DNA of 64,000 bases from Eledone cirrhosa (taxonomy: Eukaryota). A model generated the notes under the pieces. It was not told the DNA's origin and ran no database searches. It saw only the letters and a list, made by a program, of their open reading frames with translations. Positions 1,786-62,925 of this stretch are shown here, one piece after another. The translations under genes were made by a program, and so were the position numbers. How positions within the stretch are numbered: position 1 is the first letter of the stretch; each line of letters begins with the position of its first letter. The DNA is taken from contig OZ024741.1 in NCBI GenBank assembly GCA_964016885.1, positions 193,378,001 to 193,442,000 on the forward strand, read 5' to 3'.

Positions 1786-1947
1786 GACGGTGGATTGGCA
1801 GTATCGGTTGAGCGTCGGATAGCATAATTTGTGGCTTATAGTTAGGGCCCTTTACGTTCTGACTTCAAATCACACCAAGATTGGCGTTGTGTTTTATCCT
1901 TACGGTGTCCGTAAAATAAAGTAGGCCTTGTGCCAAAAGTAGAAAAA
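1786..1947 (+). mobile_element. tRNA-derived SINE (young family), diverged, internally deleted copy
   Basis: A box TGGCAGTATCGG; degenerate B box; tail GGCCTTGTGCCAAAAGTAGAAA; homologous to 35848-36033. Confidence 0.8.
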
Positions 1948-5404: not shown

Positions 5405-5590
5405 TGTTTCTACTTTAGGCACAAGGCCAGCAATTACCCAGTGCATTACTGGTACTTTATTTTATCGGCCCCGTAAGGATGAAAGGCAAAGTCAACCTCG
5501 GCGGGATTTGAACTCAGATCGTAAAGGGACGTAACTATGCTGGAAAGCATGGCGTCCGACCCTCTACCGATACTGCTAATCCACCGATAC
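5405..5590 (-). mobile_element. tRNA-derived SINE with 19-bp target-site duplication
   Basis: TSD TCACTTACTGAAAAATAAC at 5386-5404 and 5599-5617; B box GAGTTCAAATCC on the minus strand. Confidence 0.92.
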
Positions 5591-6134: not shown

Positions 6135-6181
<47 letters not shown>

Positions 6182-7271: not shown

Positions 7272-11580
<4,309 letters not shown>

Positions 11581-11603
11581 GATATATATTTATATATATA
11601 TAT

Positions 11604-16473: not shown

Positions 16474-16519
16474 AATAATGAAAGAAAATAAAAATGATAA
16501 TAATAATAATAATAATAAT

Positions 16520-19500
16520 GCTTTCTTTATTGACCACAAGGGTTTACACAAAGTAGACATTAAAGACAATACAGGACAATACAGGACGGTACAAATGGGC
16601 ATTTCTGCGTGTAAAAAAAAAGACAGAGGATGTAACAAATAATAACAATGAAAAATTCCCCAATAGGGCGGAGACTTCCGAGGGACATTTGTGGAGAAAG
16701 CCCATTAAAAGGCCATAGTGACCCTGACCACCAGAGCAAGTGTTCTCTCCCAGTTTTCCACCTTTAACTTACAAACACATACTCAGAGTAGGCCCATTCA
16801 CTCGGGCCATTCTTGCTTCTCTCACCCATCTTTCAACAAAATGCTGAGAAGAGAGCACTTCCCTCTCTACCCTGATTTTCCTTTTCAAATGAAATTTGAA
16901 AGGCTTGATCAGGGCATCACCGAAGAGGTAAGTGCTCGTCTTCAGCCCTTTCAAACGTGTCCACCATACTATCTCTTTCACCATGGCCACCAGATAGATA
17001 AAAACTGCCTGCCCTTCCCGGCTAAAGGAAGAGGGCGGGGAAATCCTCACGATGGACTCAGCTGGTAGCTGGATCCGTCCTACACGCGACAGCAGGTGTT
17101 CGACATAAACCCACAAGTCAGCAATGCTCGGACATTGGACGAGTGCGTGCAGGACGATTTCATCGCCCTGCGCGCATCTCGGACATGCCCGGCTGACGGC
17201 ACCTCCATGCCTGTAGAGTTTATCCCGAACTGACAAAGCTCCTCGTTAGCACTGCCAAGCCAGGGATTTCTGGAGGTTGTCCATAGGCCCCGGGCCGAAA
17301 GTTCTTCCGAAGAGATTGGCTAGTTGATTTTCGTCGACGCCTAGAGTTTCCCCAAGTACGTCATCGCTCTTCTCCTCCACTAATCCTCTATAGTACGCCG
17401 AGGTGGAGTTTCCACCGATCACATTGCCCGATTGGTCGAGAGCTGTGAGCGCCTGAAGATATTCCAGTCTCCAAGCGCTACCTCTCGGTCTTCGCTTGAC
17501 CCAGGACTGCAGCTCCGTCAAGGAGACGAGCTGGGGAAAGACGCGTCTAGCAAACGGCGATCACACCTGATCACCGTAGAGGAAGAGGTGGAGATGTCGT
17601 AGCCTGAGCGCGTGTCTGCGCATCATCACGACATGCCCAGCCCTCCACGTAGCGGGTGTTGACAGCAGATGGACCGCCTGACCATCGGAGCGCGTCCCTT
17701 CCACAAAAGGCGAAAGAGCACACGATCCAGCGCATTCAGGCGTGGCTTAGAACAAGGTACAACGGTCAGGCGGTAGTAGATGACGGATGCCATGTGCGCG
17801 TTAGCCACCTCCGCTCGACCTTTCAGGGATAGCTTCCTCTCCGCCCATTTCTGGGTGAGAGAAGCCACCCTGCTCGTCACCTCGTCCCAGTGTTTGTCCG
17901 TCTGGAGGTCCGGACCGAACCAAACCCCAAGCAATTAAAGTGGTCCGTCCGTCCAGCGCCCTACGACGCTGTTGGACGGCATGGAGCTGCCTCCTCAGGT
18001 GCCGAGCTACAGGCCCACCGACTTTTCCTGGTTGATCATTGCTCCTGTCACCGCTTCGTATTCTCTTAGTGTAGTTCCGTTCGCCTCGATGTGTTTGGCG
18101 TCCGACACCACTACGTTGACTCGAGAGTCAATATGTACAAGAGGGACGAGAGGGGACATCCTTGGCGGACCGAGCGCATGATGTTGAACGGTTCCAAAAG
18201 GTGACCGTTCACTCTCACCACAGAGAAGATGTCGCTGTGCATGGCAGCGAACCAGCCTCTGAAGACGGTCCCAAAGCCAGCCGCCCTCAGGACTGCCGCT
18301 AAGTAACGATGGTCGACCCTATCGAAAGCTTTCGACTAAATTGACCAAAGACTCAGGTTCCCTAGCTACCCTCTCTACGATTTATCGCATGAGGTTGAGA
18401 TTGTCGTGGATGTATCTGTCGGGAATGGTGCATGTATGCGCCTCTCCCACCAGACCACCAACGACAAGCGTCAACCTCTTTGCTAGCACCTTGGCCAACA
18501 TCTTGAAGCCTGTGTTTAGCAGAGTTATGGGCCTGAAATCATCTATGTTATCCCCCTTGTTCGGATCCTTTCTCAGCAACGCCACAGCTCCTGGGCTCAC
18601 GGAGCTGGGAATTCTTCCGTTCTGTTGCCAGTTGCAGTAGACGTCCACCAAGAGGCCTCCAAACAAGTCTGGCATGTGTGCGTAAAGTTCATAGGGCAGA
18701 CCATCAAAACCAGGCGATTTACCCCTTGTGCAGCCAGTCATTGCCTCCCGTACTTCAGCGGCTGTTATCGGCTTTGCGCAACACTCCGCCTCAGTGGCCG
18801 AGAGCCGCGGCAGTCCGTCGAGGTAGACACTAAAGTCTATCCCTCGACCCGGCCCACCGCTGCCCCCGAACAGCTGAGCGAAGTGTCGCTGAAAAGCTTC
18901 ACACATTTTCCCGGGATCGAGTAGCATGCGCCCGTCGTGGTCCACCAAAGACCGGATCGTGGCTTTGTTGCCACGACGCGCCTCCGCCACTCGGGCCCAT
19001 TGAACGGCTTTCGTCCCCTCGTGTCTGAGAGCACACACCCTAGTTCTGACAACGCAGCCTTCGTGCTTTGCATTGAAGAATTGGTCAAGGGCCAATTTCG
19101 CCGCAAGCACGTCGGTCACGATGCCTTTGCTAAGCGCCTCGTCTAATTTTCTAACTAGTTCTCCCTCTGCTCTATTTTTCTCTATTGCTAAAGCCTTACT
19201 AAACCTAATGGATTCTATTCTAATCGCTCTTTTCAGAGTAAACCACCACTTGTTGTTGACGATGGCCCCCGTCAACGCCCGCTTAACTAGTTCGCTAATC
19301 TGGTCTCTGTATGCCTTGCGCGCTGGTAAGGACGCGTTTAGCTTCCAGTAGCCGGGTCCTCGTCTATGAAGCCTATCTAAGTCAACCACACAGATCACGA
19401 ATTTGTGGTCCGTGTAGCTGATTATCTTGAATTGTGGACAGCCTATGCTAGACCTATCTATTTCCCTACAAAATACTCTATCTAGATATGATCTGGATGA

Positions 19501-21630
19501 CCAGATGCGATTTGTCCAAGTCCACATTGGCACTTTCGGGAAATCCAATCGGTACCTGTCAGACAGTTCAAAACGCCTGAGCAGGTTGGTGAGGCTCTTG
19601 CACCCTCCACTCTATCCGCTAATCCCACACAGTCCCAGCGTGAATCTAAGATCCCGTTCCAGTCGCCCACTAACACTAAAGAGCGGGACGTTCCAAGAAA
19701 GTTCTCCAGACGCCGGAAGAAATCAGGCCGCCCTGCTTCTGTCGGGGCATAGACGGCCACTAGCCTGAAAGCTTGCCCGTCTCTGCTGGTCACGTCCAGC
19801 ACCACCAACTTACCCTCTGGGTCAAGGAAGATGGCCCGTATGGCGAGATCCAAACCTCTCCGAAAAAGTACAGCAACTCCTCCCTCCGATCCAGGACGGC
19901 TGGGAGATGCGTACACATCGTAGCCGCCGAAGATCGGTGCGAAGGCCCGTGCTTCGGAGATTCTGGTCTCGCTGATGGCCACTACATCTATGTTTAGTGA
20001 CCTGAGGTCGTTGAGCAGGTGACCCTGCTTCCATGACGACCCCAAGCCATGCGCATTTATGCTGCCTATTCTGAGTGAGGTCATGTTTAAAATAGAGTGG
20101 AAAAGATGGGAAAGACCACTTACCGTACTTTTCGTAGAGGAAGGATGGTTTCTCCATCCCTTTTCACTTGATCGTCTGGTGAAGGGACCGTTGAATTGTC
20201 CCTTCGGCTGGTCGTCGGCTCTTCTATGAGTATGTTCGAATATACTCTCCGGTTGAGAGTCCCTCCTAGGTCTCTGAAATCACCAACTGCGTTGGGGAAT
20301 TTCGTTTTAATGTTTGTGTATTGTTTCTGTGCTATTTTTAGCAGTCTTATATTCGTTGGCGTTTTGATTGGTGCTGGTATTATGTAGTCGTGCTGTGAAA
20401 TGTCTGTGTTCAATTATGTAAGTCATTAGTTTCTTGTGTGTATTTATTGCCGTAAATTTGTTTTTCTGAGGGTGGAGTGTGGTGCTGCTATTTTCTTGTC
20501 GTTGTTGCTGGGTGTGTGTGTTTTGTTGTGTTTGCGATGTTGGTACGTCTACTATCACATACTTTCTGCCTCGAGTGATGTGGGTTTTGCGTGCCCAGAC
20601 GCACCCCAAGGCCTTTTGGATTTGAGCCTTCGTGGCTCTCTCCACTCGATGTGAGATTTTGCTTACGGTGCGGTAAGTCACCGTCCGTAGCTGCTGGTCC
20701 TTGAAAAAATTGGGTGGAGGTTTCAGGGAAACTCTATTTGCGCTTCTTGTCACCATGGCCCCTGCGACTGCCATCTCCTCCTCTGTGACTAACACTGTCT
20801 CGATATTTCGGGCGACACCTGCAAAAGAAGTGGTCCCTTTTTCAGCAGCACCACTATTGCTGCCGCTACTGGTCTTACTGGTGGTGCTAAGGTCGCTATT
20901 ACAGGTATCGGTGTCATTCTTGTTGTTTTCGCTGGTACAGTTGTTGGTGTTGTTGTTGTTGTTTTCGTTGATACTATTGCTGTTGTTACTGTTATTGTGG
21001 CTGTTATTATTGTTCTTTTTGTTGATACTGTTCCTACTATTATTGTTGTTGTGGCTGTTGTTATTGTCATTGTTATTGTCGTTCTCGACCTTACCGCTGT
21101 TATTTTTGTTATTGTCGTTCTCGACCTTACCGCTGTTATTTTTATTATTGTCGTTCTCGACTTTACCGCTGTTATTTTTGTTGTTGCTGTTGTTATTGAT
21201 GGTGTTGTTGTTGGTGTTGTTGTTGGTGTTATTGTTGGTGTTGTTTGTGTTAGAAATATTTGTTAATTTTAAATCTGTAACAATCTTTTTTTCCTTTGTA
21301 ATATTTTCGTTTATATTTACCTCCGCTGGAACGCTGTCTTGTTGACATGCTGATAAAGTCTCCCTCTCTCTGTGTTGTCTGACAGCGCTCTCTCTCTTTC
21401 TTGTGTTATCCATGTTGAAAATTTTCAAAAACAATATTTTTGCACAAGTACGAATACGACACCCCGTAAAGAGGTGCCGTATTATTTACTATTGAACCCT
21501 TGTATTAGGTGGGTCACTTCTTCTAAACTTTTATCAAATTTAAAACTTGAATAAAAAGTTTAGAACGGTTGAAAAAGAGGTAAAACGTTGAAAAAAAACT
21601 GGAGGCGATAAGAAGCGTGGCTTCACCAAC
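16520..21630 (-). mobile_element. Tx1-like (L1-clade) LINE copy A: 5' UTR, Asn-rich ORF1, ORF2 (APE-RT-Cys/His), 3' UTR; decayed
   Basis: SINAHGL..ISETR, AVYAP, GDWN, TDHK, GYWKLN, KSPGFDGLP, RPITLLN, CPRC..HALVQC; YADD region deleted near 18115; both ends abut (TAA)n. Confidence 0.93.
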
Positions 21631-21651
21631 AATAATAATAATAATAATAAT

Positions 21652-21746
21652 TGTTTCTACTTTAAGCACAAGGCCAGAAATTAACCAGTGCATTACTGGT
21701 ACTTTATTTTATCGACCCCGTAAGGATGAAATGCAAAGTCAACCTC
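21652..21746 (-). mobile_element. 5'-truncated SINE in (TAA)n
   Basis: 3' half of the young SINE; AATAATAAT on both sides. Confidence 0.85.
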
Positions 21747-22090: not shown

Positions 22091-22277
22091 TGTTTCTACT
22101 TTTGGCACAAGGCCAGCAATTACCCAGTGCATTACTGGTACTTTATTTCATCGACCCCATGAGGATGAAAGGCAAAGTTAACCTTGGCGGGATTTGAACT
22201 CAGAATGGCAAGGGACGTAACTCTATGCGTCAAAGCATGGCGTCCGACCCTCTACCGATACTGCCAATCCACCGCCC
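22091..22277 (-). mobile_element. Full-length young SINE in (TAA)n
   Basis: A and B boxes, core TTTCATCCTCATGGGGTCGATGAAATAAAGTACCAG, tail. Confidence 0.92.
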
Positions 22278-22578: not shown

Positions 22579-22756
22579 GATTTCTTTATTAACCACAAGG
22601 GTTTACATAAAGTAGACATTAAGGACAGTGCAGGACAATACAGGACGGTACTAATGGGCATTTCTGCGTGTAAAAAACAAAAGCAGAGGATGTAACAAAA
22701 AAATAACAATGAAAAATTCCCCAATAGGAGGGAGACTTCGGAGGGACATTTGTGGA
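22579..22756 (-). mobile_element. Tx1-like 3' UTR-only insertion
   Basis: Homologous to 16520-16695 and 22785-22965; TAA runs on both sides. Confidence 0.88.
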
Positions 22757-22784
22757 AAAAAATAATAATATTAATAATAATAAT

Positions 22785-25700
22785 GCTTTTTTTATTAACC
22801 ACAAGGGTTTACACAAAGTAGACATTAAGGACAGTACAGGACAATACAGGACGTTACAAATGGGCATTTCTCCGTGTAAAAAAAACAAAAAATAGAGGAT
22901 GTAACAAAAAAGGAATCAATGAAAAATTCCTCAATAGGGGGGAGACTTCCGAGGGCCATCGTGGAGAAAGCCCATTAAAAAAGCCACGGTGACCCTAACC
23001 ACCAGGGCAAGTGACCTCTCCCAGTTTTCCACCTTTAATTTACAAACACATACTCAGAGTAGACCCATTCACACGGGCCATTCTTGCCTCTCTCACCCAT
23101 CTTTCAACAAAATGCTGGGAAGAGAGCATTTCTCTCTCTACCCTGACTTTCCTTTTCAAATGAAATTTTAAAAAGTTAATCAGGGCACCACCGAAGAGGT
23201 AAGTGCACGTCTTCAGCCCTTTCAAACAAGTCCACCATACTATCTATTTCGCCATGGCCACCAGACAGATAAAAATTGCCTGCCCTTCCCGGCTAATGGA
23301 AGAGGGCGGGGCAATAATCACGATGGACCCAGCTGATAGCCGGATCCGTCCTACACGCGACAGCAGGTGTTCGACATAAACCCACAAGTCAGCAATGCTC
23401 GGACACTGGACGAGTGCGTGCAGCACGGTTTCGTCGCTCTGCGCGCATCTCGGACATGCCCGGCTGACGGCACCTCCATGCTTGTAGAGTTTATTCCGAA
23501 CTGGCAAAGCTCCTCGGTAGCACTGCCAGGCCAGGGATTTCTGGAAGTTGTCCATAGGCCCCGGCCCGAAAGTTCTTCCGAAGAGATTGGCTAGTTGATT
23601 TTCGTCGACGCTTAGAGTTTCCCCAAGTACGTCGTCGCTCTTCCCATCCACCAATCCTCTATAGAACGCCAAGGTGGAGTTTCCACCGGTCACATTGCCC
23701 GATTGGTCGAGGGCTGTGAGCGCCTGAAGACATTCCAGTCTTCAAGCGCTCCCTCTCGGTCTTCGCTTGACCCAGGACTGCAGTTCCGTCAACGAGACGC
23801 GCTGGGGAAAGACGCGTCAAGCAAACGGCGACCACACCTGATTACCGTCGAGGAAGAGGTGGAGATGTCGTAGCCTGAGCGCGTGTCTGTGCATCATCAG
23901 CCACGGCATTCCAAGCCCTCCACGTAGCGGGTGTTGACAGCAGATGGACCGCCTGACCATCGGAGCGCGTCCCTTCCACAAAAAGCGAAAGAGCAAACGC
24001 TCCAGCGCAGTCAGGCGGGACTTAGGACAAGGCACGACGGTCAGGCGGTAGTAGATAACAGATGCGATATACGCGTTAGCCACCTCCACTCCACCTTTGA
24101 CGGATTGCTTCTTCTCCGCCCATTTCTGGGTGAGAGAAGCCAACCTGCTCGTCACCTTGTCCCAGTGTTTGTCCGTCTGGAGGTCCGGACCGAACCAGAG
24201 ACCTAGCAATTTAACCGGTCCGTCCGTCCAGCGCCCGACGACGCTGTTGGACGGCATGGACCTGCCTGTCCAGGTACCGAGCTGCAGGCCCACTGACTTT
24301 TCCAGGTTGATCATTGCTCCTGTCACCGCTTCGTATTCTCTTAGTGTAGTGCCGATCGCCTCGATGTGTTTGGCGTTCGACACCACTACGGTGACATCGT
24401 CCGCATATGCTGACACGGATCCTCCGCATCCTAGTTCGCGCGGGACCCCCTCAACGTCTCCAGTTTGTGCAGTAATGGCTCGAGAGTCAATACGTACAAC
24501 AGGGACGAGAGGGGACATCCTTGTCGGACCGAGCGCATGAAGTTGAACGGTTCCGAAAGGTAACCGTTCACTCTCACAACAGAGCAGATGGCGCTGTGCA
24601 TGGCAGCGATCCAGCCTCTGAAGACGGGCCCAAAGCCAGCCGCCCTCAGGACTGCCGCCAGGTAACGATGGTCGACCCTATCGAAAGTTTTCGACTGATC
24701 TAAATTGATCAAGGACCCACCCGTGCCAGGATCCCTAGCTACCCTCTCCACGATGCATCGCATGAGATGGAGGTTGTACGTCGGTCGCGATGCCTTTGCT
24801 AAGCGCCTCGTCTAATTTTCTAACTAGTTCTCCCTCTGCTCTATTTTTCTCTATTGCTAAAGCCTTACTAAACCTAATGGACTCTATTTTAATATCTCTT
24901 TTCAGGCAAACCACCACTTGTTGTTTATGATGGCCCCCGTCAACGCCCGCTTAATTAGTTCGCTAATCCGGTCTCTGTAGGCCTTGCGTGCTGGTAAGGA
25001 CACGTTTAGCTTCCAGTAGCCGGGTCCTTGTCTATGTGCCTATCTAAGTCAAGCACACAGATCCCGAATTTGTGGTCCGTGTAGCTGACTATCTTGAATT
25101 GTGGACAGCCTATGCTAGACCTATCTATTTCCCTACAAGATACTCTATCTAGATATGATCTGGATGACCCTATGCGGTTTGTCCAAGTCCACATTGGCAC
25201 ATTCGGGAAATCCAATCGGTACCTGTCAGACAGTTCAAAACGCCTGAGCAGGTTGGTGAGGTTCTTGCAGCCTCCTCCCCTATCCGCTAATCCCACACAG
25301 TCCCAGCGTGCATCTAAGATCCCGTTCCAGTCGCCCACTGACACTAAGGAGCTGGACGTTCCAAGAAAGGTCTCTAGACGCGGGAAGAAATCAGGCCGCC
25401 CTGCTCATGTCGGGGCATAGGGGGCCACTAGCCTGAAAGCTTGCCCGTCTCCGCTGGTCACGTTCAGCACCACCAACTTACCTTCTGGGTCCAGCAAGAT
25501 GGCCCGTATGGCGAGATCCAAACCTCTCCTAAAAAGCACATCAACTCCTTCCCCCGATCCAGGACGGCTGGGAGATGCATACAGATCGTAGCCGCTGAAG
25601 ATCGGTGCGAAGGCCCGTGCTTCGGAGATTCTGGTCTCGCTGATGGCCACTACATCTATGTTTAGTGACCTGAGGTCGTTGAGCAGGTGGCCCTGCTTCC

Positions 25701-27609
25701 ATGACGACCCCAGGCCACGCGCATTTATGCTGCATATTCTGAGTGAGGTCATGTTGAAAAGGAGTGGAAAAGATGGGAAAGACCACTTACCTTACTTCTC
25801 GTAGAGGAAGGATGGTTTCTCCATACTTTTCACTGCTTCTGGCCTCCTCCGGAAGGATGTCCTTATAAATCCTCCTGGAGAGTGCTTGTCGGAAGTCTCC
25901 GATGTCTTTGGGGAATTTTTGTTTTAGTGTCCTGTACGTTTTCTATGTGATGTGAGTGATTTGTATGTGTGGAGGTGGTGTGAACTTTTGGGGTGTTCTG
26001 TAGTCTTTTTCTGTGATGCTGGTGTTGTGTTGGATGTAGTGTAATAATTGGTTGTTGTTCAAATTTAATGCTGTGTAGTGTGTATCGTTTTGGTTGACTT
26101 GTTTTGTTTGCATTTGTTGTGGGTTTGTTTCTGTTTCGCTTTTGGTGACTTTTGTGGTGTTGGTGATGGTGATGGTGTTGGTGTTTGTGGTGATGGGGTT
26201 GGTGATGTTGGTGTGGATGGTGGCATAGCTGTCCTAACGCTTTTGTTTGTTAGTTTATTTGTTTCCCTCTGTATTTTGTTTTTGGAGGGGGAAGGAAGGG
26301 GAATTTTTCTTTTTTGGGTTCTTTCTCTTTTTTCTTTTTTCCTGATACAGTTTCCCACTCCTCGTCGTCACAATCAGTCTTCAGTTGCGATAGGTCGGGG
26401 AGTGGAACATCCTCCACATGCGTTGGTTTTGGTTGTGGCGTGGTGGATGCTGGAAGCGCTGGTACTAGTTCTGACGCGGTGGGTGGTGGTGGTGTTGATT
26501 TTGCTACTGTTGCTGGGGTTGTTGCTGTTACAGTTACTTCTGTTGTTGCTGCTACAGTTGTTGCTGCCATTTCTGCTGCTGGTGGTGTTGATGGTTGAGT
26601 CACCGTGGTGGGTAAGAAAGGTGGCCTTAACTTTTTAGCCTGAGGGCAGAAAGCCTTTAGGTGGGTTCCTTCACCACAAACGACACACGTAGGCCTTCTA
26701 CCCTCAACGATTACGGTGAGGTGGCTGCCGTCAGTGAGTTCTATCACCTCTGGGATTTCCTCAATGCTTTTTTGGTCCCCTTGGATCAGGAGCTCCATCC
26801 CAGATCCGGACCAGTTCTCCTGCTTTTCTTTTGTTATTTCAATTATTTTGGTGTTGGCTTCGATGCCGGCGAGGACGGCAGCCATTAGCTAGGGAATTTC
26901 GATGGTCGGTGGAACGTGGGTCACCCTGATCTTCACGAGTCTCTGGCCACAATAGCATGGGACGAGTGTGAAGTCGTCGCTTCTTAATGGGGCCATAGAG
27001 TGCTCTCTGGCTTCCTGTGGGGTTCCAAAGAACACGTCCACAGTTCCATACTTCTGCTCACGTCAGATGTGGGATTTTTCGCCTATACATGTCCCAAAGC
27101 TTTTTGTATTTGGGACTCGGATGCCCGTTCCACTCGGCGTGATTTTGTGTTTATCGGCCGATATGACACGGTGCATAGGCGCCGATGCTCCATTTTATTA
27201 GGTGGGGGGGGGGCTGACCCTGTACCCATCTTTTTTAAGACCTGCAGTTATTGATAATGGCGGGAAATGAATGTCTGCATGAGACAAATTTAAATTATTG
27301 CTATGCTACTGCTTATATTTTTAGTGTTGGCAAACGTAGTAATATTTACAATGATGGTGTTGGTGTGAGGTGTTAGTTTGTGAGGAAGGCTCTCAGCTTC
27401 GTGTGGCTGTGAGTCGTCCATAATTTTTTCAAAGAAAGTTTTTGTTTCATAATTATAAAAGTTTAAATTTTGGGCTCAATCTTTTTGAGTGTCCTTTTCA
27501 GAAAGCAATATATGTGAACTTATAAACGCTTAACAACAAACATTTTCCATAACAGGCAATTTGAAACAACTGAAAACAACAAACCTTACGATTTCCTACG
27601 TAGATCGCC
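22785..27609 (-). mobile_element. Tx1-like LINE copy B with a different ORF1 (CCHC knuckle)
   Basis: ORF1 piece has CVVCGEGTHLKAFC; ORF2 has APE, VRQGCPLS and SAYADD; large deletion at about 24778; (TAA)n at both ends. Confidence 0.92.
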
Positions 27610-27618
27610 AATAATAAT

Positions 27619-27802
27619 TGTTTCTACTTTAGGCACAAAGCCAGCAATTACCCAGTACATTACTGGTACTTTATTTTATTGACCCCGTAAGGATGAAAGG
27701 CAAAGTTAACCTCAGCGGGATGTGAACTCAGACTGTAAAGGGGCGTAACTATGCCAGAAAGCATGGCGTCTAACCCTCTACGGATACTGCCAATTCACTG
27801 CC
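27619..27802 (-). mobile_element. Young SINE in (TAA)n between two Tx1-like copies
   Basis: Homologous to the other copies; TAA runs on both sides. Confidence 0.9.
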
Positions 27803-27836: not shown

Positions 27837-27838
<2 letters not shown>

Positions 27839-30800
27839 TTTCTTTATTGGCCACAAGAGCTGACATCAAGAAAAACATTACAGACGGCACAGGACGGTAC
27901 GGTGTGGGTTTTGTGCGTGTAAAGATTTTTATTATTTATATAAGAAAATAAAAAAAGACATAGAAACATATATATATAAACAATAAAAATGAAAATTGAA
28001 AAAATGAAAAATTCCCCAATAGGGGGAAATCCTCCGAATGGTTACTCGTAGCGAAAACCACACAAAATACCACGGCCACCCTGACCACCAGGACAAGCGC
28101 CCTCTCTCAATTTTTCCATTTCTCAAACTACAGGCGTATATTCAGAGCGGTCCCGTTCACTCGGACCATTCTCGCTACATTCACCCACCTTTCAACAAAC
28201 TTGCTAGAAGGCAGCACTTGCCTCTCCACCCTGATTTTCCTCTTCAAGTGAAACTTGAAAAAGTTAATCAGGGATTCGCCGAAGAGGAAAGTGTCTGCCT
28301 TTAACCCTTTCAACCTTGTCCACCACACAATCTCTTTCGCCATGTCGATAACCGGATCAGTCCTACAGGCGACAACAACTGTTCGACATAGCTCCACAAG
28401 TCAGCAATGCTCGGGCACTGAACGAGTGCGTGCACTATGGTTTCGTCGCTCTACGCGCATCTCAGACAGGCTGGGCTGACGGCACTTCCGTGCCTGTAGA
28501 GCTTATCTCAAACCGGCAACGCTCCCCGGTAGCACTGCCAGGCCAGGGATTTTTGGAAGTTATCCATAAGCCTTGGGCTGAAAGTTCTCCGGAAGAGAGC
28601 AAACAGCTGATCTTCTTCGAAGCCCAGGATCTCTCCGAGAACGTCGTCGCTCTTCCCCTCCACTAGTCCTCTATAGAACGCCGAGGTGGATGTTCCACCG
28701 ATACTGGTGCCCAGCTGGCAGATGGCGGTGACCGCCTGGAGACATTCCAGTTTCCAAGTGCTATCCATCGGTCTTTTCCTGACCCAGGACTGCAGCTCCG
28801 TCAAGGAGACGAGCTGTGGGAAAACGTTCCTGGCGAACGGCGACCACACCTGTTCACCGTCAAGGACGCACCAGAGATGTCCAGTCCTCAACGCAACGGG
28901 TGTTGACAGCAGATGGATTGTCTGACCATGGGAGCGTGTCCCTTCCACAAAAAGCGGAAAAGGAGGCGCTCCATTTTGGTCAGAGTTGAGGCGGGGCAAG
29001 GGACGACAGTGAGGCGGTAGCAGATGACGGATGCGATGTATGAATTCGCCACCTTCGACAGGCCTTTCAGTGACAGCTTCCTCTCGGCCCATTTCTGGGT
29101 GAGGGAGGCCACCTTGCTCGTCACCTCGCTCCAGTTTTTCTCCATCTGGAGGGCCGGTCCGAACCAGACCCCGAGCAATTTAACCGTTCCGTCCGTCCAA
29201 CGGCCCACGACGCTGTCGGACGGCATGGACTTGTCTCTCCAGATGCCGAGCTGCAAGCCCAGCGACTTTTCCTGGTTTATCTTTGCTCCTGTCACCGCTT
29301 CGTATTCTCTGAGAGCGGTGCCGTCGGCGGCGTAAGCCGACGCGAATTTGCCGCATCCTAGTTCGATGGTCCGATGGTCGACCCTATCAAATGCTTTCGA
29401 TTGATCCAAGTTGATCAGGGCCCCACCCGTGCCAGGTTCCTTAACCACCCTCTCTATGATGTATCGCATGAGGTGGAGGTTGTCTTGTATGGATCTGTCC
29501 GGAATGGCGCATGTCTGCGCCTCTCCGGCCAGACCACCAACGACAAGCACCGACCTCGTTGCTAAGACCTTGGCCAAAATCTTGAACTCTGCGTTTAGCA
29601 GAGTTATGGGCCTTAAATTATCGATAACATCCCCTTTGTTCGGGTCTTTTCTCAGCAGCGTCACTGCTCCCCGGCTCACAAAACTGGGAATGCTCCCGTT
29701 CTGCTGCCAGTTGCAGTAGACATCTGCCAAGAGGTCACCGAACAAGTCTGGCATAAATGCATAAATCTCGTAGGGCAGACCATCCAAACCTGGCGATTTA
29801 CTCCTCGTGCAGTTAGCCATCGCTTCCCGTATTTCACCGGCTGTTATTGGCTTTTCGCAACACTGTGCTGTGGTCGTCGAGAGCCGAGGCAGTCCGTCGA
29901 GGTATGGACTGAAGTCCATGCCCCGATCCGGCCGCCGCTGCTCCCGAACAGTTCAACAAAGTGCTGCTGAAGAGCTTCACACATCTGCTTGGGTTCGAGC
30001 ATCACGCACCCGTTTTAGTCAGACAAAGACCGAATTGTGGCTTTGTTGCCACGTCGCGCCTCTGCCACCCGGGCCCATTGGACGGCTTTTGTCCCCTCGT
30101 GTTTCAGAGCTCGCGCTCTAGCTCTGACAACGCAGCCTTCGTGTTTTGCGTTGAAGAATTGGTCGAGTGCCAATCTCGCCGTAAGCACGTCGGTTGCGAT
30201 GCCTGTTCTAAACGCCTCTTCTAGCTTTCTGACTAGCTCTCCCTCTACTCAATTTTCCTTTATCACTAGTCCTTTGCTAACCCTAATCGACTCTACTTAA
30301 TTGCCCTTTTCAGAGCGAACCACCACCTGTTGTTGACGACCGCTCCCGGCAACGCCCGCTTAACTAATACGCTAATCCGGTCTCTGTAGGCTTTGCGCGC
30401 CGGGAACGAAGCGTTCAGCTTCCAGTAACCGAGTCCTTTCTATGAAGTCTGTCTATGTTGATCTCACAGATCACAAATTTGAGGTCTGCGTAGTCGACTA
30501 TTTTAAATTGTGGACAAGTTCTCTGCCGAATACCCTATCGAGATACAATCTGGATGACACGATGCGGTTTGTCCATGTCCACATTGGCACATTCGGGTGA
30601 TCCAGTCGATACCTGTCAGACAGTTCAAAACGTGTGAGCAGGTTGGTGATGCTCTTGCACCCTCCTCCCCTATCCACTAGCCCCACACAATCTCATCGTG
30701 CATCCAAGATCGCCCACTAACACTAAAGAGCGGGACGTTCCAAGAAAGGTCTCTAGACGTCTAAAGAAATCTGGCCTACCTGTCCCTGTCAGGGCATAGA

Positions 30801-31445
30801 CGGCTACTAGCCTGAAAGAGTTGCCTTCGGTGCCGCTTACGTCCAGCACCACCGACTCACCTTCTGGGTCCAGGAAGATGGTCCGTCTGGCGAGACCCAA
30901 ACCTTTCCGAAACAACACACCCACTCCGCCCTCCTCTCCCGGACGGCTCGGAGATGTGTACACCTCGTAGCTGTCGGAGATCGGTGCGAAAGCTTGCGTT
31001 TCTGAGATTCTTGTCTCGCTGATGGTCACCACATCTATGTTTAGTGACCTGAGGTTGTTAAGCAAGTGACCCTGCTTCCAAACCGAGCTCAAGCCACGCA
31101 CGTTTACACTTCCCATACTAAATACGGCTATGTTGGGTGAGGAACGGGGCAAGTGAGAAAAGATCACTTACCTTGATCGTCTGGTGAAGGGACCGTTGAA
31201 CCGTCCCTTCGGCTGGTCATCGGCTCTTCTGTGAGTATATCCGAGTATACTCTTCTGTGAGTATATCCGAGTATACCCTCCTAGGTCTCTGAAATCACCA
31301 ACTGCGTTGGGGAATTCCATTTTAATGTTTGTGTATTGTTTCTGTGATATTCTTACTAGTCGTATGTTCGTTGGTATTTTGATTGGTGCTGGTATTATGT
31401 AGTCGTGCTGTGAAATGTCTGTGTGTTCAATTATGTAAGTCACTT
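27837..31445 (-). mobile_element. Tx1-like LINE copy C, 5'-truncated, several internal deletions
   Basis: ORF1 C-terminus, APE (30670-31167), RT (28888-29919), 3' UTR ending AATAAAGAAATC then ATT. Confidence 0.92.
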
Positions 31446-35847: not shown

Positions 35848-36033
35848 GGCGGTGGATTGGCAGTATCGGTAGAGGGTCGGACGTCATGCTTTGACGCATA
35901 GAGTTACGGCCCTTTCCATTCTGAGTTCAAATCCCGCCGAGGTCAACTTTGTCTTTCATCCTTACGGGGTCGATAAAATAAAGTACCAGTAATGTACTGG
36001 GTAATTGCTGGCCTTGTGCCTAAAGTAGAAACA
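35848..36033 (+). mobile_element. Full-length young tRNA-derived SINE (Meta/MESC-like core) with 14-bp TSD
   Basis: A box TGGCAGTATCGG; B box GAGTTCAAATCC; core TTTCATCCTTACGGGGTCGATAAAATAAAGTACCAG; TSD TTATTTGAATTACC at 35831-35844 and 36035-36048. Confidence 0.93.
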
Positions 36034-42580: not shown

Positions 42581-43814
42581 GTTGGTGAAGCCACGCTTCT
42601 TATCGCCTCCAGTTTTTTTTCAACAGTATACCTCGTTTTCAACCGTTCTAAACCTTTTATTCAAGTTTTAAATTTGATAAAAGTTTAGAAGAAGTGACCC
42701 ACCTAATACAGGGGTTCACTCGTAAATAATAGGGCACCCCTTTACGGGGTGTCGTATTTGTGTAAAAATATTTTTTGAAAAAAAAGATTTTTCAACATGG
42801 ATAACACAAGAAAGAGAGAGAGCACTGTCAGACAACACAGAGAGAGGGATACTTTAACAGCATGTCAACAAGACAACGGAGGTAAATATAAACGAAAATA
42901 TTACGAAGGAAAAGAGGAACAATATCATTTTTAATGATATTGTTACAGATTTAAAATTACCAAATATTTCTAACATAAACAACATCAACAAGAACACCAA
43001 CAACAACACCATCAATAACAACAGCAACAACAAAAATAACAGCGGTAAAGTGGAGAACGACAATAACAATGACAATAACAATAGCCACAACAACAATAAT
43101 AGTAGGAACAGTATCAACAAAAACAACAATAATAACAACATCCACAATAACAGTAACAACAGCAACAACAGTACCAACGAAAACATCAACAATGACATCG
43201 ATACCTGTAACAGCGATCTCAGCACCACCAGTAAGACCAGTAGCGGCAGCAATAGTGGTGCTGCTGGAAAAGGGACCACTTCTTTTGCAGGTGTCGCTCG
43301 AAATGTCGAAACAGTGTTAGTCACGGAGGAGGAGATGGCAGTCGCAAGGGCCATGGTGACAAGAAGTGCCAATAGAGTCTCCCTGAAACCTCCACCCGAT
43401 TTTTTCAAGGAAAATCAGGGTGGAGAGGCAAGTGCTGCCTTCTAGCAAGTTTGTTGGAAAGGTGGGTGAATGTAGCGAGAATGGTCCGAGTAAATATACG
43501 TCTGTAGTTTGAGGGATGGAAAAATTGAGAGAGGGCGCTTGCCCTGGTGGTCAGGGTGGCCGTGGTCTTTTGTGTTGTTTTCGCCACGAGTAACCCTCGG
43601 ATGTTCTCCCCCCCCCCCTTATTGGGGAAGTTTTCCTTGTTTCAATTTTCATTTTTATTGTTTATATATATATATGTTTCTGTCTTTTTTTCTTTTTTTC
43701 TTTTCTTATATAAATAATAAAAAAATCTTTACACGCACAAAACCCACATCGTACCGTCCTGTGCCGTCTGTAATGATTTTCTTGATGTCAGCCCTTGTGG
43801 CCAATAAAGAAATC
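42581..43814 (+). mobile_element. 1234-bp internally deleted Tx1-like element D with both termini
   Basis: 5' end same as copy A (GTTGGTGAAGCC); joins near 43410 to the C-type ORF2 end and 3' UTR; (ATT)n on both sides. Confidence 0.92.
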
Positions 43815-43842
43815 ATTATTATTATTATTATTATTGTAATTA

Positions 43843-43987
43843 CTCTTTGAGTCTCAGTCATTGATGTTAGTTAACTGGAAAGTTTGTTGAAATGAATATC
43901 AAGCCACTACCTGCAGCCTCAGATATTCAGGACGTATCGGAGGGTTCTTGCTGTTCCCAGCAAGCATGCCTTTTGAAGCGTTCCAAA

Positions 43988-44056
<69 letters not shown>

Positions 44057-44790
44057 GTTCTTTGAGTCTCAGACATTGATGTTAGTTAACTGGAAAGTTT
44101 ATTGAAATGAATATCAAGCCACTACCTGTAGCCTCAGATATTCAGGGCGTATCGGAGGGTTCTTGCTGTTCCCAGCAAGCATGCCTTTTGAAGTGTTCCA
44201 AAAAGCGGGGCGAGGCCAATTTTCTTTAACCATCCTTGGAAACACATTGAGATAGTACCTAGTGCGCCTATGACAATCGGGACCACTTTGACTTCATGGC
44301 AGTTCCAAATCCTTTTTACCTCCCACTTTAAGTCCTGGTATCGATTAATTTTCTCCCTCTCCTTCTCTTGCACTCTCGTGTCGAATGGGCAGGCCACGTT
44401 ATTATTAAGTCACGTATTTGTGTAGGTTGTTTTTCTCCATCTGAACACAGTCCTCTATGCTGATAAGACCTCTTCCGCCTTCAGATCAACATCACTCCTT
44501 TTGTGGAACATGTTGTAGATAGTCAATAGCTTCTTAGTCTCCCTATCCATTTCTTTTTGTTCAGCAATATTCCATCTCAGAATTCCCGCACTGTACCTAA
44601 TAATAGACACAGCTCGGGAATTTACTGCACTTATGGCATTCCTACTGTTCAGATGTGACTTTAATACGCTCCTTACTCTCCGAATGTATTCAGATCTTAT
44701 CAATTCCTTCATTTTTTTTTTTGTTCTTGATGTCATCTGCCTCCAGAACACCTAAATATTTGTATCGCTCTTCAGCATCAATTACATTTA
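43843..44790 (-). mobile_element. Two tandem Dong/R4-type 3' fragments (43843-43990 and 44058-44790) separated by (TTA)n
   Basis: YKYLGVLEADDI, YIRRVRSVLKSHLN, EKINRYQDL, VPIVIGALG, LQKACLLGTA; duplicated 3' UTR. Confidence 0.88.
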
Positions 44791-44816: not shown

Positions 44817-45064
44817 GTTGTAGGAGGAAAACTGGAAGAGGGCATTTTCCCTAGCGGTCTGGGTAACCGTGGCTTTTCTTGTGGGCTCCCTCTCCACGAG
44901 CACTCCTCGGGGGTTTCCCCACTTTTGGGAATTTGTCATTGTTTCCTTTTGTTTTTGATTTTGTTTTTATACACGCAGAAATGCCCATTTGTACTGTCCT
45001 GTATTGTCCTGTACTGTCCTTAATGTTATACTTTGTGTCAACCCTTGTGGTTAATAAAGAAAGC
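44817..45064 (+). mobile_element. Tx1-like 3' UTR fragment E
   Basis: Ends AACCCTTGTGGTTAATAAAGAAAGC then ATTATT; (ATT)n upstream. Confidence 0.85.
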
Positions 45065-45169: not shown

Positions 45170-47062
45170 ATGTGTAAGGGATATAAGCCCTTGGACTCTG
45201 CAGGTACAGAAGTTGGGGAGAGAGAACTGGTCCGGTATTGGAATGGAGATGCTCATCCAAACCGACCAGGACTGCATCAACGCTATTCCTGACGTAATAA
45301 ACCTCGGGAGTGGCTCCCAACTTCCCATATCTGTGGAAGGAAGGTGCCAAAGTGCTTCAATTGTAGTTCGAAGTCTCACCTCAAGGCCTTCTACCCACAG
45401 AAAATAAGAAAGGCGAAGGTCCCCCTCCTTCCAACACCGGAACCGTTGCCACCAGAAACAGAACAGTCAGCAAAAAAATCGGGAGTTTCTACAGAGAGTA
45501 GGAGGACATCGTCCGTGGCACCCACACCAAAGCCACGGACAACAAAAACAGTGGCGGCACCTGCAGCAACGGAAACAGTTGCATTAGCTGCACCTGTGCC
45601 AAGACCAGGCTTCAGCACCAACAACAACAAAGACAAATGAGAGGGTAGAACTCATACCCCTCCCCGACCTCTCGCAGACGGACATGGAGTATGAGGCGGC
45701 TGAGGAGTGGAAAACGGTTGTCAACAAAAAAAAAAAACAAATGCATAAACACCACAACTTCTCGCTCCAAAGGCGAAGGCAAAAAAAGAGAGGTAAAGGC
45801 TGCAAGGAGACTTGCAGCAACAACACCACCATCACCATCTCTACCACAAGCATCATCACCGACAACAACCACACCAACACCAGCATCACCACAAACAGCA
45901 ACATCGCAAACACAAGAAAGTACACACACCCAACAGCAACAAAAGGAAAACAGCAACAAAATCAACCCCCCCCCCCCACACACACACACACACAAAAAAA
46001 AGTACACAGCCTTAAATATAACACACAAAGGATTAATGGAACATATAAAACAACACACAGACATTACAGACTTAAATTACCACACCCTATGAACACCAAG
46101 AACATTACCCAAAAACATTACAATTGTCGAAATTAAAATGGAAGACTATAAACAATTAGAGCAAAAATTCCCCAACGTAGTTGGGAATGTCAGAGGGTTA
46201 GTCTCCAAGAGAATCTATACAGATATTATCTTGGAGACACCCATGAATAGCCGAAGGGACGGTTCTACTGTCCCATCCCCACACGATCAATGTAAGTGAT
46301 CTTTTCTCACTTACCCGTTCCTCACCCAGCATGGCCGTACTCAGAATAGGCAGTGTACGTGGCCTGGGATCATCTTGGAAGCAGGGTCACCTGCTCAACG
46401 ACCTCAGGTCACTAAACATAGGTGTGGTGGCCATCAGCGAGACCAGAATCTCCGAAGCACGAGCCTTCGCACCATCTTCGGCGGCTACGATGTATACGCA
46501 TCTCCCAGTCGTCCAGAATCGGGGGGCGGAGTTGCTGTGCTTTTTCGGAGAGGCTTGGATCTCGCCATACGGGCCATCTTCCTGGACCCAGAAAGTAAGT
46601 CGGTGGTGCTGGACGTGACCGGCAGCGAAGGCAATGCTTTCAGGCTGGTAGCCGTCTACGCCCCAACAGGGGCAGGACGGCCAGATTTTTTCAGACGTCT
46701 AGAGACCTTTCTTGGAACGTCCCGCTCTTTAGTGTTTGTGGGCGACTGGAACGGTATCTTAGATGCACGCTGGGATTATGTGGGGCTAGTAGACAGGGGA
46801 GGAGGGTGTAAAAGCCTCAACAACCTGCTCAGACGTTTTGAACTGTCTGACTGAATTATCCGAATGTTCCGATGTGGACATGGGCAAACCGCATCGGGTC
46901 ATTAAGATCGTATTTAGATAGGGTATTTTGTAGGGAAACAGATAAGGCTAGTGTAGGTTGTCCACAATTTAAAGTAGTAGACTACACAGACCACAAATTT
47001 GCGATCTGTGAAGTTGACTTAGATAGACTCCATAGGCAGGGCCCGGTTACTGGAAGCTGAAC
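45170..47062 (+). mobile_element. Tx1-like fragment F (ORF1 with CCHC-like knuckle + APE)
   Basis: ENWSGIGME, CFNCSSKSHLKAF, ISETR, AVYAP, GDWN, TDHK. Confidence 0.9.
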
Positions 47063-57293: not shown

Positions 57294-57473
57294 TGTTTCT
57301 ACTTTAGGCACAAGGCCAGCAATTACCCAGTGCATTACTGGTACTTTATTTTATCGACCCCATAAGGATGAAAGGCAAAGTCAACCTCGGCGGGATTTGA
57401 AATCAGATCGTAAAGGGACGTAACTATGCTGGAAAGCATGGCGTCCGACCCTCTACCGATACTGCTAATCCAC
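57294..57473 (-). mobile_element. Young SINE with 17-bp TSD
   Basis: TSD TCGGAGGTAAGAATAAT at 57277-57293 and 57474-57490; empty paralogous site near 53851-53867. Confidence 0.93.
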
Positions 57474-57844
57474 TCGGAGGTAAGAATAATGTAAATAAAT
57501 TAGTAGAACGAAAATGACAGAGGTTATTAAAATCATAAAAGTAAACATATATACATTCACACATCTAAATACGTACATACACATGCATACGCAAAACACA
57601 CGCCATGTATGCATATACATGCACGCACACATAAACACGCGCACACGTACGTAAAGCGGCACGACACATATACCCGCACACATACGAACGTATACACCAA
57701 ATACACATAAATATATGCGTATATGTATACATATAATTATATATACATATGAAAATCTACACGCATAGATGTGTTTTTAGTAACTACACAGCTCCTTTCG
57801 TATCTTATCATTTTATATATACATATATATACATACATATATAG

Positions 57845-58222
57845 CCTGCTCTTCCTGGTCAAAGAAAGGCGGCGGTTCGATCTTCAGTATGGACTCGGCC
57901 GATAGCCGGATCCGTTCTACACGCGACAACAGCTGTTCGACATAACTCCACAAGTCAGTAATGCACGGACATTGGACGAGTGCGTGCAGAATGGTTTCGT
58001 CGCTCTGTGCGCATCTCGGGCAGGTCCGTCTGACAGCACTTCCGTGCCTGTAGAGTTTATCCCGAACCGGCAGTGCCAAGTAGGTAAGCGAGGGATTTCT
58101 GGAAATTGTCCATCGTCCCCGGCTCGAAAGTCCTCCGGAACAGACTGGTCAGTTCGACTTCGTCGAGGTCCAAAGCTTCTCCGAGTGCGTCATCGAACTT
58201 GCCCACCACTAATCCTCTAGAG
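57845..58222 (-). mobile_element. Tx1-like ORF2 3' fragment G
   Basis: LPVRDKL..CPRC..DETILHALVQC. Confidence 0.88.
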
Positions 58223-60639
58223 CACTGGTTCTCAACCCATTTAGGCCAAATCACGAAACGCCCCCTACCCTATTTTTCCATTTTTCAATATACTACTGAT
58301 TTTGATATCGGTAGATTACTAAAAAATTGATTAACAATAATCCAAAGATACCATTGCAGGCAGCTGAAAGTATAAATACATTCCTTGAAAGGAAATATAT
58401 AAATTTCAAAAAAAGGAACATAAATGTTCTTTTTTATGAATAAGGACCAGTTGAATTTGTTATATTCCCACCAGGTGATACCAGCTATTTTGAACATTTA
58501 TACAAGAGCAACTCTGTCTATCCCAAGTGTGCTCTTATCTGGAAGAAATTGGCAATTATATCATTTCAAAGCTTTCCAATGTTCCCTTTAATGAAACGGA
58601 CAGGATAAACGTTGATATCTAACTTGATGTCCCCTCCACTTTGTGAGCTTAGAGACCACGGAAGAGAGTTTTCATGACCACGTAAGAGGGTATATTTATT
58701 AGTAAATGGTAAAATATATACAACAAATATATACAACAAATGAGTAAGTGAATTGAAGTAGATGGTTTCCAGTCCAGTCAGACTGCAAGTACAAATAAAA
58801 AAATTGTTAGTTTGCTTTGTAACAATAGCATATCCAAGTTTTCGGATAAATCAACTTACTTTAACTTTAACCTTATTTCAATGGGACCCTTGATCTTCAT
58901 GGAGTCTAGCTAACTCTTTGACGCCAGGCTGGATTTTCATAAGATGTAGCCGGAGATCTCCACGTGTAATTACATTGTAGCGGTTGCGAGCCTTACTGTG
59001 CAGTCTGGAAACAGCGCCAAACCCCCTCTCGACTAAGTATGAGCTTGGAAAAGGCAGAGCAAATCTCTTAGCCTCTGCATGTAGGTGTGGAAATCGATGC
59101 AGAATTTCCTCTTGCATCCCAAAAAGGGGTTCACCTATTTTGGGAAATCTAATTTTGATCATGTCATCTGCTTGAAGTTCAATGAATTCTTCCTGAAATT
59201 TAACGTCCAAATCATCGACCTTAGCTATGAAGGTATCTGCTATCCACATCGGGATGTCCATCGGCAAAAGGTCAACAAACCGTTCTCTCATGTTGTCTTG
59301 TAGCGCACCGAGGTGAGTGGTATACATTTGGAGTTGGTCATTGCTTACAATGTTTTGAACATTGGCAACACTAGGAAAATTATAGAATTCCCGCCAATAA
59401 AGATTCTTTTCGGTGACATTCAATTTGGCCAGGAAAGTTTTCACAGCATTCCTTGCTTTAAGCAAGGTGATCTTCTTCCCCTGCAAAGCCAAAATGACGC
59501 TATTGCATTTGTCGAAGATGTCGGTGAGGTAGGCAGAGTCTTGCCTCACATCGAGGGTTTTCTTGTACAGTTCTGTGTTGCGTCCTCGCAGAAACTCAAT
59601 GATAGAATCGAAGAGTTCAAAGAAGTGAGTAAGGCACTTGCCCTTTGAAAGCCACCTCACTTCAGTATGAAGGAACAACTTGACGAATTCTTCGTCATTA
59701 TCTTGGCACGGTTGCTGGAAAATTCGTTCATTGAGGGAATGCCGTTTTATAAAATTGATGACATCAATGGCCACCTGCAAGGACTTGCTCAGCAGCTCGC
59801 TGAGTTTCTTCGCAGCCAAATGACAAAATGAACAGCAAATACAGATAGATTTTTCTCTCTTCAGAAGAGTGACGAAACCCTTATGTTGGCCGACCATTGC
59901 TCTTGCGTCGACCGTAGCACATGATACAATGTGTGTTGTATGTGGTCCTAGCTGTATGTATTACCTGATTATGTGTTGTATGTGGTCCTAGATGTTTGTA
60001 TTACCTGTTATGTGTTGTATGTGGTCCTAGATGTATGTATTACCTGCCTGTGTGTTGTATGTGGTCCTAGATGTGTGTGCTACCTCCTTATGTGTTGCAT
60101 ATGGTCCTAGAAGTGTGTATTACCTGCTTATGTGTTGTATATGGTCCTAGATGTGTGCATTACCTGCTTATGTGTTGTATGTGGTCCTAGATGTGTGTAT
60201 TATCCGATTATGTGTTGTATGTGGTCCTAGATGTGCGTTACCCGCTTCTGTGTTTTTTCTTTTCTTTTTTTATTTGTAATATTATTTATACAATAGGGAA
60301 TAAAATAGATCTACATAGTGTTAACTCGTTACGGTTGAGTCAATAACTTCAGACAGGAAATACATTGTTATCGGTGAAGGAAAGATAAGATTCTAACTGG
60401 CTGCGCTCAAAGTGTCCTTGACCCAGTTGACTGTGGGTTTTTTCCATTTTTAGGATCTCAATTGCTGGTTAATGTCTAGACACACCGGCACACCTGCTCA
60501 CAGCTGCGTTCAGACCATAGTTATGCTGTCTGCATGCTCATTCAAATAAATTCAGTCTGGCTGTCTCAAAGACATACAAATATGGCTTATAAAACTTACC
60601 AAACGCCCCCCTGGAGTTCAGAAACGCCCCCCCCCCCCC

Positions 60640-60640: not shown

Positions 60641-62729
<2,089 letters not shown>

Positions 62730-62746: not shown

Positions 62747-62925
62747 TGTTTCTACTTTTGGCACAAGGCCAGCAATTATCTCAGTGTATTACTGGTACTT
62801 TATTTTATCGACCCCGTAAGAATGAAAGGCAAAGTAAACTCGGGATTTGAACTCAGACAATAAAGGGCCGTAACTCTATGCTGCAAAGCATGGCGTCCGA
62901 CCCTCTGCCGATACTGCCAATCCAC
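62747..62925 (-). mobile_element. Young SINE with 17-bp TSD
   Basis: TSD TCAATAATTATAATAAT at 62730-62746 and 62928-62944. Confidence 0.92.

Follow-up and report, generated by a model that had tools for sequence, protein, structure and literature searches.

We analysed a window of 64,000 nucleotides of Eledone cirrhosa DNA (assembly GCA_964016885.1, contig OZ024741.1, positions 193,378,001 to 193,442,000 of the forward strand), meaning that whole stretch throughout, in which copies of a Tx1-like long interspersed nuclear element (LINE) and of a short interspersed nuclear element (SINE) end on ATT triplets. The LINE copies and the repeats bordering the first of them are listed below (ORF, open reading frame; UTR, untranslated region).

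16499..16519, minus strand: (ATT)7 at the 3′ junction of E1
16520..21630, minus strand: E1, near-full-length Tx1-like LINE (Pfam Exo_endo_phos and zf-RVT; tblastn; sliding identity)
21631..21651, minus strand: (ATT)7 at the 5′ junction of E1, shared with a truncated SINE as its 3′ flank
22579..22760, minus strand: F, 3′ end of a 5′-truncated LINE, flanked by the 14-bp duplication ATTATTATTTTTTT
22785..27609, minus strand: E2, LINE with a different 5′ UTR and an internally deleted ORF2, ATTATTATT on both sides
27837..31443, minus strand: E3, second subfamily, about 82% identical to E1 in ORF2, 3′ end joining (ATT)10
42581..43814, plus strand: E5, both ends present, internally deleted, (ATT)n plus GT on each side
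44817..45064, plus strand: G, 5′-truncated LINE 3′ UTR, directly after (ATT)8 and ending on ATTATTATT
45185..47062, plus strand: H, internal ORF1–endonuclease fragment with no natural-looking end
57844..58225, minus strand: I, internal ORF2 fragment, diverged
60646..61481, minus strand: J, endonuclease–linker fragment, diverged
62945..64000, minus strand: E4, LINE 3′ part whose 5′ end lies outside the window

E1 has two ORFs, the first lacking its middle through internal deletion and the second (about 16769–20084), which encodes in pieces an apurinic endonuclease-like (APE) domain, a reverse transcriptase (RT) and a zinc finger, being frameshifted. Its 5′ ~1.3 kb is 85–96% like E5 and E3 and the remainder 91–96% like E2 by sliding identity, so that the copy, whose 5′ end an earlier sequence-only reading had described as complete-looking, is a damaged mosaic of two subfamilies. 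The switch point lies at 20230–20430, just upstream of ORF2, and suggests that ORF1/5′ UTR modules have been exchanged between subfamilies, of which the window holds at least three. We ruled out F as a tandem duplicate of the E2 end, since it is 87% identical to E2 and 91% to E1. J may extend 5′ to about 62730, there abutting ATTATTATAATTATT; tblastn found no match when its upstream region was considered as an ORF1 homologue, and this possible 5′ end was not counted.

Directly after the LINE 3′ end, on the element's sense strand and always in the same strand and phase, a motif scan found ATTATTAT in seven of seven cases (16520, 22579, 22785, 27837, 43814, 45064 and 62945), and every one of these coordinates, already given in the sequence-only reading, proved exact. 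An nhmmer profile of the LINE 3′ UTR recovered the same seven ends in the window at E<1e-43, with one further, junk match at E 0.66. None of the seven carries poly(A), and AATAAA stands 6 nt before the junction, which is common to subfamilies about 82% alike. ATTATTAT occurs at 94 of ~128,000 window positions, counting both strands; seven junctions out of seven are far beyond chance, even with only about five independent sites. Among AAT-class tracts of at least four units, nine of 11 carry a LINE or SINE end; of the other two, one is accounted for by a Dong-like junction and one has no explanation. Of 104 other di- and trinucleotide tracts, none carries a LINE or SINE end. This count took in 26 ends and excluded two diverged SINE copies, one of them adjoining an (ATC)n tract; no end fell at AG or AAG tracts, which argues against a pyrimidine-repeat target of the Kibi/Koshi type.

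The SINE, about 186 bp long, is present in the window as seven young and two diverged copies. An A-box-like motif was matched in four of the seven and a B-box-like motif in all seven, and from these motifs the head appears to be of tRNA type; ARAGORN and Rfam returned no matches in the window. We take the element to resemble MetaSINEs, in which a 66-bp Meta domain follows the tRNA head. The copies referred to below are the following.

1788..1945, plus strand: diverged SINE (76–81%), followed by a tail-like (ATC)n-rich tract that has no upstream copy
5405..5586, minus strand: SINE outside microsatellites, with a duplication of 19 nt that begins with GTTATT
21652..21746, minus strand: 5′-truncated SINE, ATTATTATT on both sides
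22091..22276, minus strand: full SINE between (ATT)8 and (ATT)4
27619..27802, minus strand: SINE lying between E3 (at its 3′ end) and E2 (at its 5′ end)
35848..36033, plus strand: SINE at a non-microsatellite site, 14-nt duplication TTATTTGAATTACC, with G before the upstream copy and A before the downstream copy
57294..57473, minus strand: SINE outside microsatellites, with an exact duplication of 17 bp that begins with ATTATT
62747..62925, minus strand: SINE flanked by a duplication of 17 nt that begins with ATTATT, E4 being joined by its 3′ end to the upstream copy of the duplication

All seven young SINE copies end on RTTATT in the strand and phase of the LINE. Four of them are flanked by duplications of 14–19 nt that start with RTTATT, three lying outside any microsatellite.

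The 5′ junctions bear on whether the triplets belong to the target or to the element. The sequence-only reading had three complete-looking 5′ ends abutting (ATT)n: those at 21630 and 27609 do so directly and the one at 42581 carries (ATT)14 plus GTT, but the completeness of the 27609 end can only be presumed, because its 5′ UTR is dissimilar to that at 21630 and 42581. Two of these three tracts double as the 3′ flank of a SINE. Of the six LINE copies whose two junctions both fall within the window, five have ATTATTATT at the 5′ side, compared with 0.27% of window positions that have it within 15 nt upstream by chance. The 5′-truncated copies F and G are better evidence for a target than the complete-looking ends, as both start directly after ATT and, being truncated, cannot owe that ATT to the element's own 5′ end. 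The unrelated 5′ ends at 21630, 27609 and about 62731 each start with G immediately after ATT; this G is possibly cap-derived or part of the target.

Five sites, F and four SINEs, were informative as to a copied tail. Their duplications of 14–19 nt, each with a chance probability of 0.002–0.004, begin with the ATT motif and extend into non-repeat sequence, leaving 0–1 nt of ATT in excess of the duplication, and therefore no tail was copied. At F, the 14-nt duplication runs into a T tract, and the T run may in part be microhomology with the element. E5 has (ATT)7 plus GT on both sides, a 23-nt match. In standard target-primed insertion the 5′ copy of the target-site duplication is original target DNA, so that a tail duplicated on insertion, the objection anticipated in the sequence-only reading, is not expected, and its preference for a target over an element-made tail is upheld by these duplications, which strongly imply that empty alleles would carry the motif. 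An ATT tail encoded by the element, with near-random insertion at 1–3 nt of microhomology and 5′ ATT arising from clustering, is accordingly a very remote explanation: it would have to accommodate five sites at which ATT lies wholly within the duplication, a tail null of P(dup≥14)=0.0025 per site, and two truncated copies that begin at ATT. What speaks for it is that triplet tails are common in LINEs and SINEs (as parts of PMC3747384 and PMC6007223 describe), that the diverged SINE at 1788–1945 has its tail-like (ATC)n, and that E3 has no 5′ ATT.

We then compared the 3′ ends of the two elements. The SINE shares the last ~22 nt of the LINE in exact register, with a CTTGT-type loop 16 nt from the junction in all 14 LINE and young SINE ends; anchored at the junction, the ungapped LINE–SINE match is 13.2 of 21 nt (shuffle p 5e-5). 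A stem of 3–4 bp around the loop varies on both sides between lineages, with a covariation of 0.514 vs 0.269, reached in 1 of 500 shuffles and taken as the best of seven registers. On the simplest reading of these shared ends, the LINE would mobilise the SINE in trans. Were the LINE to move the SINE, the minimal target would be the 6-mer RTTATT and (ATT)n only its richest source, because the SINE inserts at lone motifs. A target consisting of the (ATT)n microsatellite as such, as originally proposed, is accordingly not established, three of the seven young SINE copies with the same 3′ end being located at a single RTTATT.

The endonuclease was examined in the translated pieces of the window copies, where its catalytic motifs are present. 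The loop before YLD is two residues shorter in 4/4 window copies than in P0007, P0015, P0002, P0121 and P0194, and equals that of human L1 in length; the loop of P0119 is also short. We take this loop to map to the specificity hairpin. The role of that hairpin is described in part of PMC6007223, and the short loop is weak evidence that may fit a nuclease recognising a short motif. The APE domain alone could recognise (TAA)n microsatellites, as proposed for Kibi and Koshi, with the SINE depending on another partner. At least ATTATTAT at all seven LINE 3′ junctions compared with four of seven SINE junctions would suit this explanation, as would a hairpin unlike that of relatives without ATT junctions; yet the LINE–SINE difference is not significant (Fisher p 0.19), the SINE has the same tail, strand and phase, and the hairpin is shortened to L1 length rather than lengthened. 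We regard it as unlikely. Endonuclease recognition and RNA pairing are moreover inseparable from junction sequences, in that a read-through AUUAUU paired to a nicked AATAAT-3′ primer gives identical junctions, and the APE-encoded specificity put forward in the sequence-only reading is thus not established. Pairing between RNA and primer matters for L1 (PMC3649969) and for R1Bm and SART1 (PMC7265360), and part of PMC6007223 offers a further precedent.

Taken together, these observations support, with a probability of roughly two in three, a Tx1-like APE–RT LINE that inserts at pre-existing RTTATT/(ATT)n without a copied tail, probably with the SINE as its partner and with a joint choice of site. 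Insertion would proceed by target-primed reverse transcription at 5′-|RTTATT-3′ without poly(A). A nick in the bottom strand would leave AATAAY-3′OH, a position suggested by the duplications starting at RTTATT and by analogy with the TT|AAAA site of L1 (PMC6007223, in part), and the target would be duplicated over ~14–19 bp. Recognition of the RNA probably relies on its last ~22 nt, which contain a CUUGU loop 16 nt from the end, and the LINE is likely to mobilise in trans the tRNA-type SINE with the same last nucleotides. Because ATTATT follows every copy and the poly(A) signal is 6 nt from the end, AUUAUU is probably part of the transcripts, which could then pair with the primer; site choice would most likely be joint, combining an endonuclease preference for a short A/T motif with pairing of the read-through AUUAUU RNA to the primer. 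Since (ATT)n is the densest source of the motif and each insertion would remake it, LINEs and SINEs would stack into arrays.

Several observations weigh against this interpretation. The seven LINE ends represent only about five independent sites in a single window, and no LINE copy was seen in the window at a lone RTTATT. E3 (27837–31443) shows neither ATT nor a duplication at its 5′ junction, which may reflect a later deletion. RTTATT is missing after two of nine SINE-type 3′ ends, those of the diverged copies, one of which has the tail-like (ATC)n tract. The stem covariation reflects about three lineages and not 14 events, hairpin energies are no better than those of shuffles (z −1.5 to +1.0), and an alternative fold wins in four of seven SINE ends. 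The shared tail is also short, and a similar 9-mer occurs inside bivalve V-SINEs; bivalve SINE/LINE pairs, by comparison, share 35–61 bp (PMC11481361, in the part available). In that same part the bivalve SINE partners are CR1, CR1-Zenon, L2 and Nimb, no Tx1 partner appears in part 1 of the SINE/LINE pair tables of PMC3747384, and several MetaSINE partners are given as unknown in part of PMC4824008.

To place the element, we searched the window copies and their homologues with Pfam and found PF03372, PF00078 and PF13966, that is, APE, RT and a C-terminal zinc motif, in a two-ORF layout, while NCBIfam gave only sub-threshold matches and the best PDB match was L1 ORF2p. ORF1 of E2, read from its translation, contains a zinc knuckle, CVVC-x4-H-x4-C (CxxC-x4-H-x4-C), which has no Pfam match, is degenerate in H and is deleted in E1. 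A CCHC knuckle in ORF1 is a feature of the Tx1 clade, and a poly(A) 3′ end, found at 0/7 window ends, is usual for that clade but does not define it. Among the proteins found, P0001 came closest, with 72% identity to the E1 ORF2 piece; its own closest named relative is from Argonauta hians (71%). Used as a proxy, P0001 scored 271–315 bits against four proteins labelled YTX2 or TX1, which are annotation names and not curated families, and 174 bits against human L1 ORF2p, bearing out by similarity the description of the element as Tx1-like. The RT motif reads DQSKAFDRVDH here, DQEKAFDRV in Tx1-labelled proteins and DAEKAFDKI in L1, with DQxKAFDRV common to P0001 and the Tx1-labelled proteins.

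A quick RT tree, in which every input row was kept and which was built without curated Kibi/Koshi/Keno or L1 rows, joined the window copies with P0001, P0012 and P0013 in a group with 100% support, apart from a vertebrate Tx1-labelled group with 100% support; its backbone did not resolve and its outgroup was a long branch. The LINE, whose RT is 35–40% identical to vertebrate Tx1-labelled RTs, would therefore appear to form a separate lineage. We take the vertebrate group to be the one that contains Kibi and Koshi, and the closeness to these families implied by the sequence-only reading was not established. Placement within Kibi/Koshi was ruled out by the separate RT group and the lack of pyrimidine-repeat ends, and placement in Dong/R4 by the N-terminal APE.

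A single search of genome contigs returned 42 loci, of which 38 (L001–L037 and L042, all in one binned record) are eukaryotic-looking relatives with 42–45% amino acid identity to P0001. They share with the window LINE the two-ORF layout, the ORF1 CCHC, the absence of poly(A) and a site-clustered distribution; they differ in forming pure head-to-tail arrays with no spacer (period 6.43–6.58 kb in the five measurable loci), in having no (ATT)3+ tracts (0 in 429 kb) and in an endonuclease hairpin two residues longer. A conserved ATT target across the wider lineage is excluded by the missing tracts, and the ATT junction is thus specific to the lineage of the window. Runs of at least three TTAGG or TTAGGG units were absent from the 38 loci, and Rfam gave no match in the eight that were searched. 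The record is filed as a bacterial metagenome-assembled genome (MAG) yet holds full-length eukaryotic LINE arrays, which would point to mis-binning of animal DNA and to an array that targets itself or lies at a chromosome end. Of four distant Tx1-like loci in MAG contigs, two adjoin 5S rRNA (L039, 4422–4534; L040, 2726–2844), one after a poly(A) run, and poly(A) is present in L038 and L040. We take the 5S-adjoining loci to be Mutsu-like, presumably an instance of a known Tx1 habit. A splice-donor-like GTAAGTG stands at the ORF1 stop in all copies (about 20120, 25790 and 31170 on the minus strand, 46293 on the plus strand) and in a 42%-identical relative (L019, about 5253), and in the window a pyrimidine tract comes after it, with a conserved AG about 53 nt further on. 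A spliced ORF1–ORF2 fusion through this site was dropped, the frames agreeing in E1 and E2 but not in E3 and H.

The ATT tracts of E5 and G are also occupied by another element.

43836..44790, minus strand: Dong/R4-like element with a restriction-like endonuclease (RLE), from translation and junctions

This element consists of a 5′-truncated copy (44057–44790) and an extra 3′ fragment (43836–43987, about 175 bp) with (AAT)23 between them, and its 3′ ends are each followed by (AAT)n on its own sense strand. The Dong/R4 label is our assumption from its motifs; its best PDB matches were to the R2 C-terminus and weak (E 0.23). Its place is between E5 and G, whose tracts it shares while running in the opposite orientation, so that one repeat brings together a TAA-targeter of a known kind and a Tx1-like element. 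The LINE could instead target the 3′ flanks of other mobile elements, such as SINE and Dong-like ends, with ATT incidental. A SINE 3′ end does immediately precede both E1 and E2, a SINE immediately follows both E3 and E4, and the Dong-like element has E5 and G on its two sides; transposon-targeting Tx1 families, including Tx1 and Tx1-Mar, are also known (PMC4494074, in part). We nevertheless hold this to be quite improbable, as the neighbours are mutually unrelated and differently oriented, with ATT alone in common, and the 3′ flank of F is ATT followed by unique A/T-rich sequence.

Known Tx1 targets, as far as the available part of PMC4494074 lists them, are Tx1D, U2, (TC)n, (TTC)n, (TTCC)n/(TTTC)n, Mariner, Harbinger, LTR elements, U5, 5S and satellites, and a target-specific non-LTR family is defined there by more than 20% of flanks being of one sequence type. 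A TAA target is listed only for Dong in part of PMC3812793, and site-specific APE elements are confined to the Tx1 and R1 clades in part of PMC6007223. Our literature searches found no report of a TAA/ATT-targeting Tx1 or of a cephalopod Tx1 target, although an earlier Repbase, Dfam or supplementary record is possible; the accessible portions of PMC4758252, PMC9115989, PMC11203168 and PMC4640811 name no cephalopod Tx1 target. In O. vulgaris, 13 L1-Tx1 families recently active and five Dong-R4 families are reported (PMC13282606, in part).

Compared with Kibi (TC)n, Koshi (TTC)n and the crocodilian (TTCC)n/(TTTC)n Tx1 families (PMC4494074, in part), the window LINE is likewise of APE–RT Tx1 type with a simple-repeat preference, but its target is A/T-only and apparently a 6-mer, and it has no poly(A). 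With Tx1-Mar and SINEU it has in common that one target serves both a Tx1 LINE and a SINE and that tandem insertions sandwich the duplication; SINEU elements, however, have snRNA heads and a poly(A) tail, and no LINE with the SINEU-1 3′ terminus was found (PMC4494074, in part), whereas here a probably tRNA-type SINE has a shared, tailless 3′ end. Human L1 (TT|AAAA, snap-velcro priming; PMC3649969, in part) resembles it in having a short nick motif to which the RNA 3′ end is complementary and in duplications of ~15 bp, but in L1 a poly(A) tail is copied and RNA recognition is loose, while the window LINE has no copied tail and a specific 3′ end that is seemingly shared. R1Bm and SART1 offer a parallel in that R1Bm RNA uses downstream target sequence (PMC7265360, in part). 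Dong, with its (TAA)n target (PMC3812793, in part), uses the same repeat class, and a Dong-like element occurs in the same tracts of the window; it ends in AAT on its sense strand, in the orientation opposite to the window LINE. R4 elements have an RLE (PMC4640811, in part), whereas the window LINE has an APE; Dong carries the R4 label in part of PMC13282606, a placement that matches our own assumption.

The finding would thus add an A/T-triplet target, apparently of independent origin from Kibi and Koshi, to the APE-type site-preferring elements, and APE and RLE elements would use one repeat from opposite strands. This is a new ATT target in a group already known to pick targets and not a new kind of system; because target switching is expected in Tx1, the surprise is moderate. 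If the SINE partnership is true, it would provide an engine for part of the octopus SINE load (11.6% in O. vulgaris; PMC13282606, in part) and predict where SINEs land. The two-residue loop change relative to the pure-array relatives forms a natural pair for apportioning site choice between nuclease and RNA–primer pairing. We put forward a fuller version only tentatively: a Tx1-lineage LINE that dropped poly(A) priming, recognises a small 3′ hairpin and, with a shortened endonuclease loop, primes read-through AUU repeats on a self-regenerating RTTATT would be the autonomous partner so far missing for an abundant tRNA-type SINE of octopods, the two forming a tail-sharing Tx1–SINE pair that reaches the Dong target convergently, from the opposite strand and by means of an unrelated nuclease.

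Other mobile elements populate the window. A second Dong/R4-like RLE fragment at about 950–1790 (minus strand) is interrupted by the diverged SINE. At 7374–11582 (plus strand) lies a near-full-length LINE with APE and RT, presumably of RTE type and possibly a second microsatellite-associated family, with (AT)n directly on both sides, and at 37845–39200 (plus strand) the C-terminal fragment of an RLE element, whose motifs we take to be CRE-like, about 300 nt before (AAG)51. Between the LINE fragments I and J, an ORF of 360 codons (58878–59960, minus strand) that has no Pfam match resembles a hAT/Buster-type transposase. Finally, a 1-kb imperfect inverted repeat at 6172–7172, 89.5% self-complementary, adjoins (TA)n.

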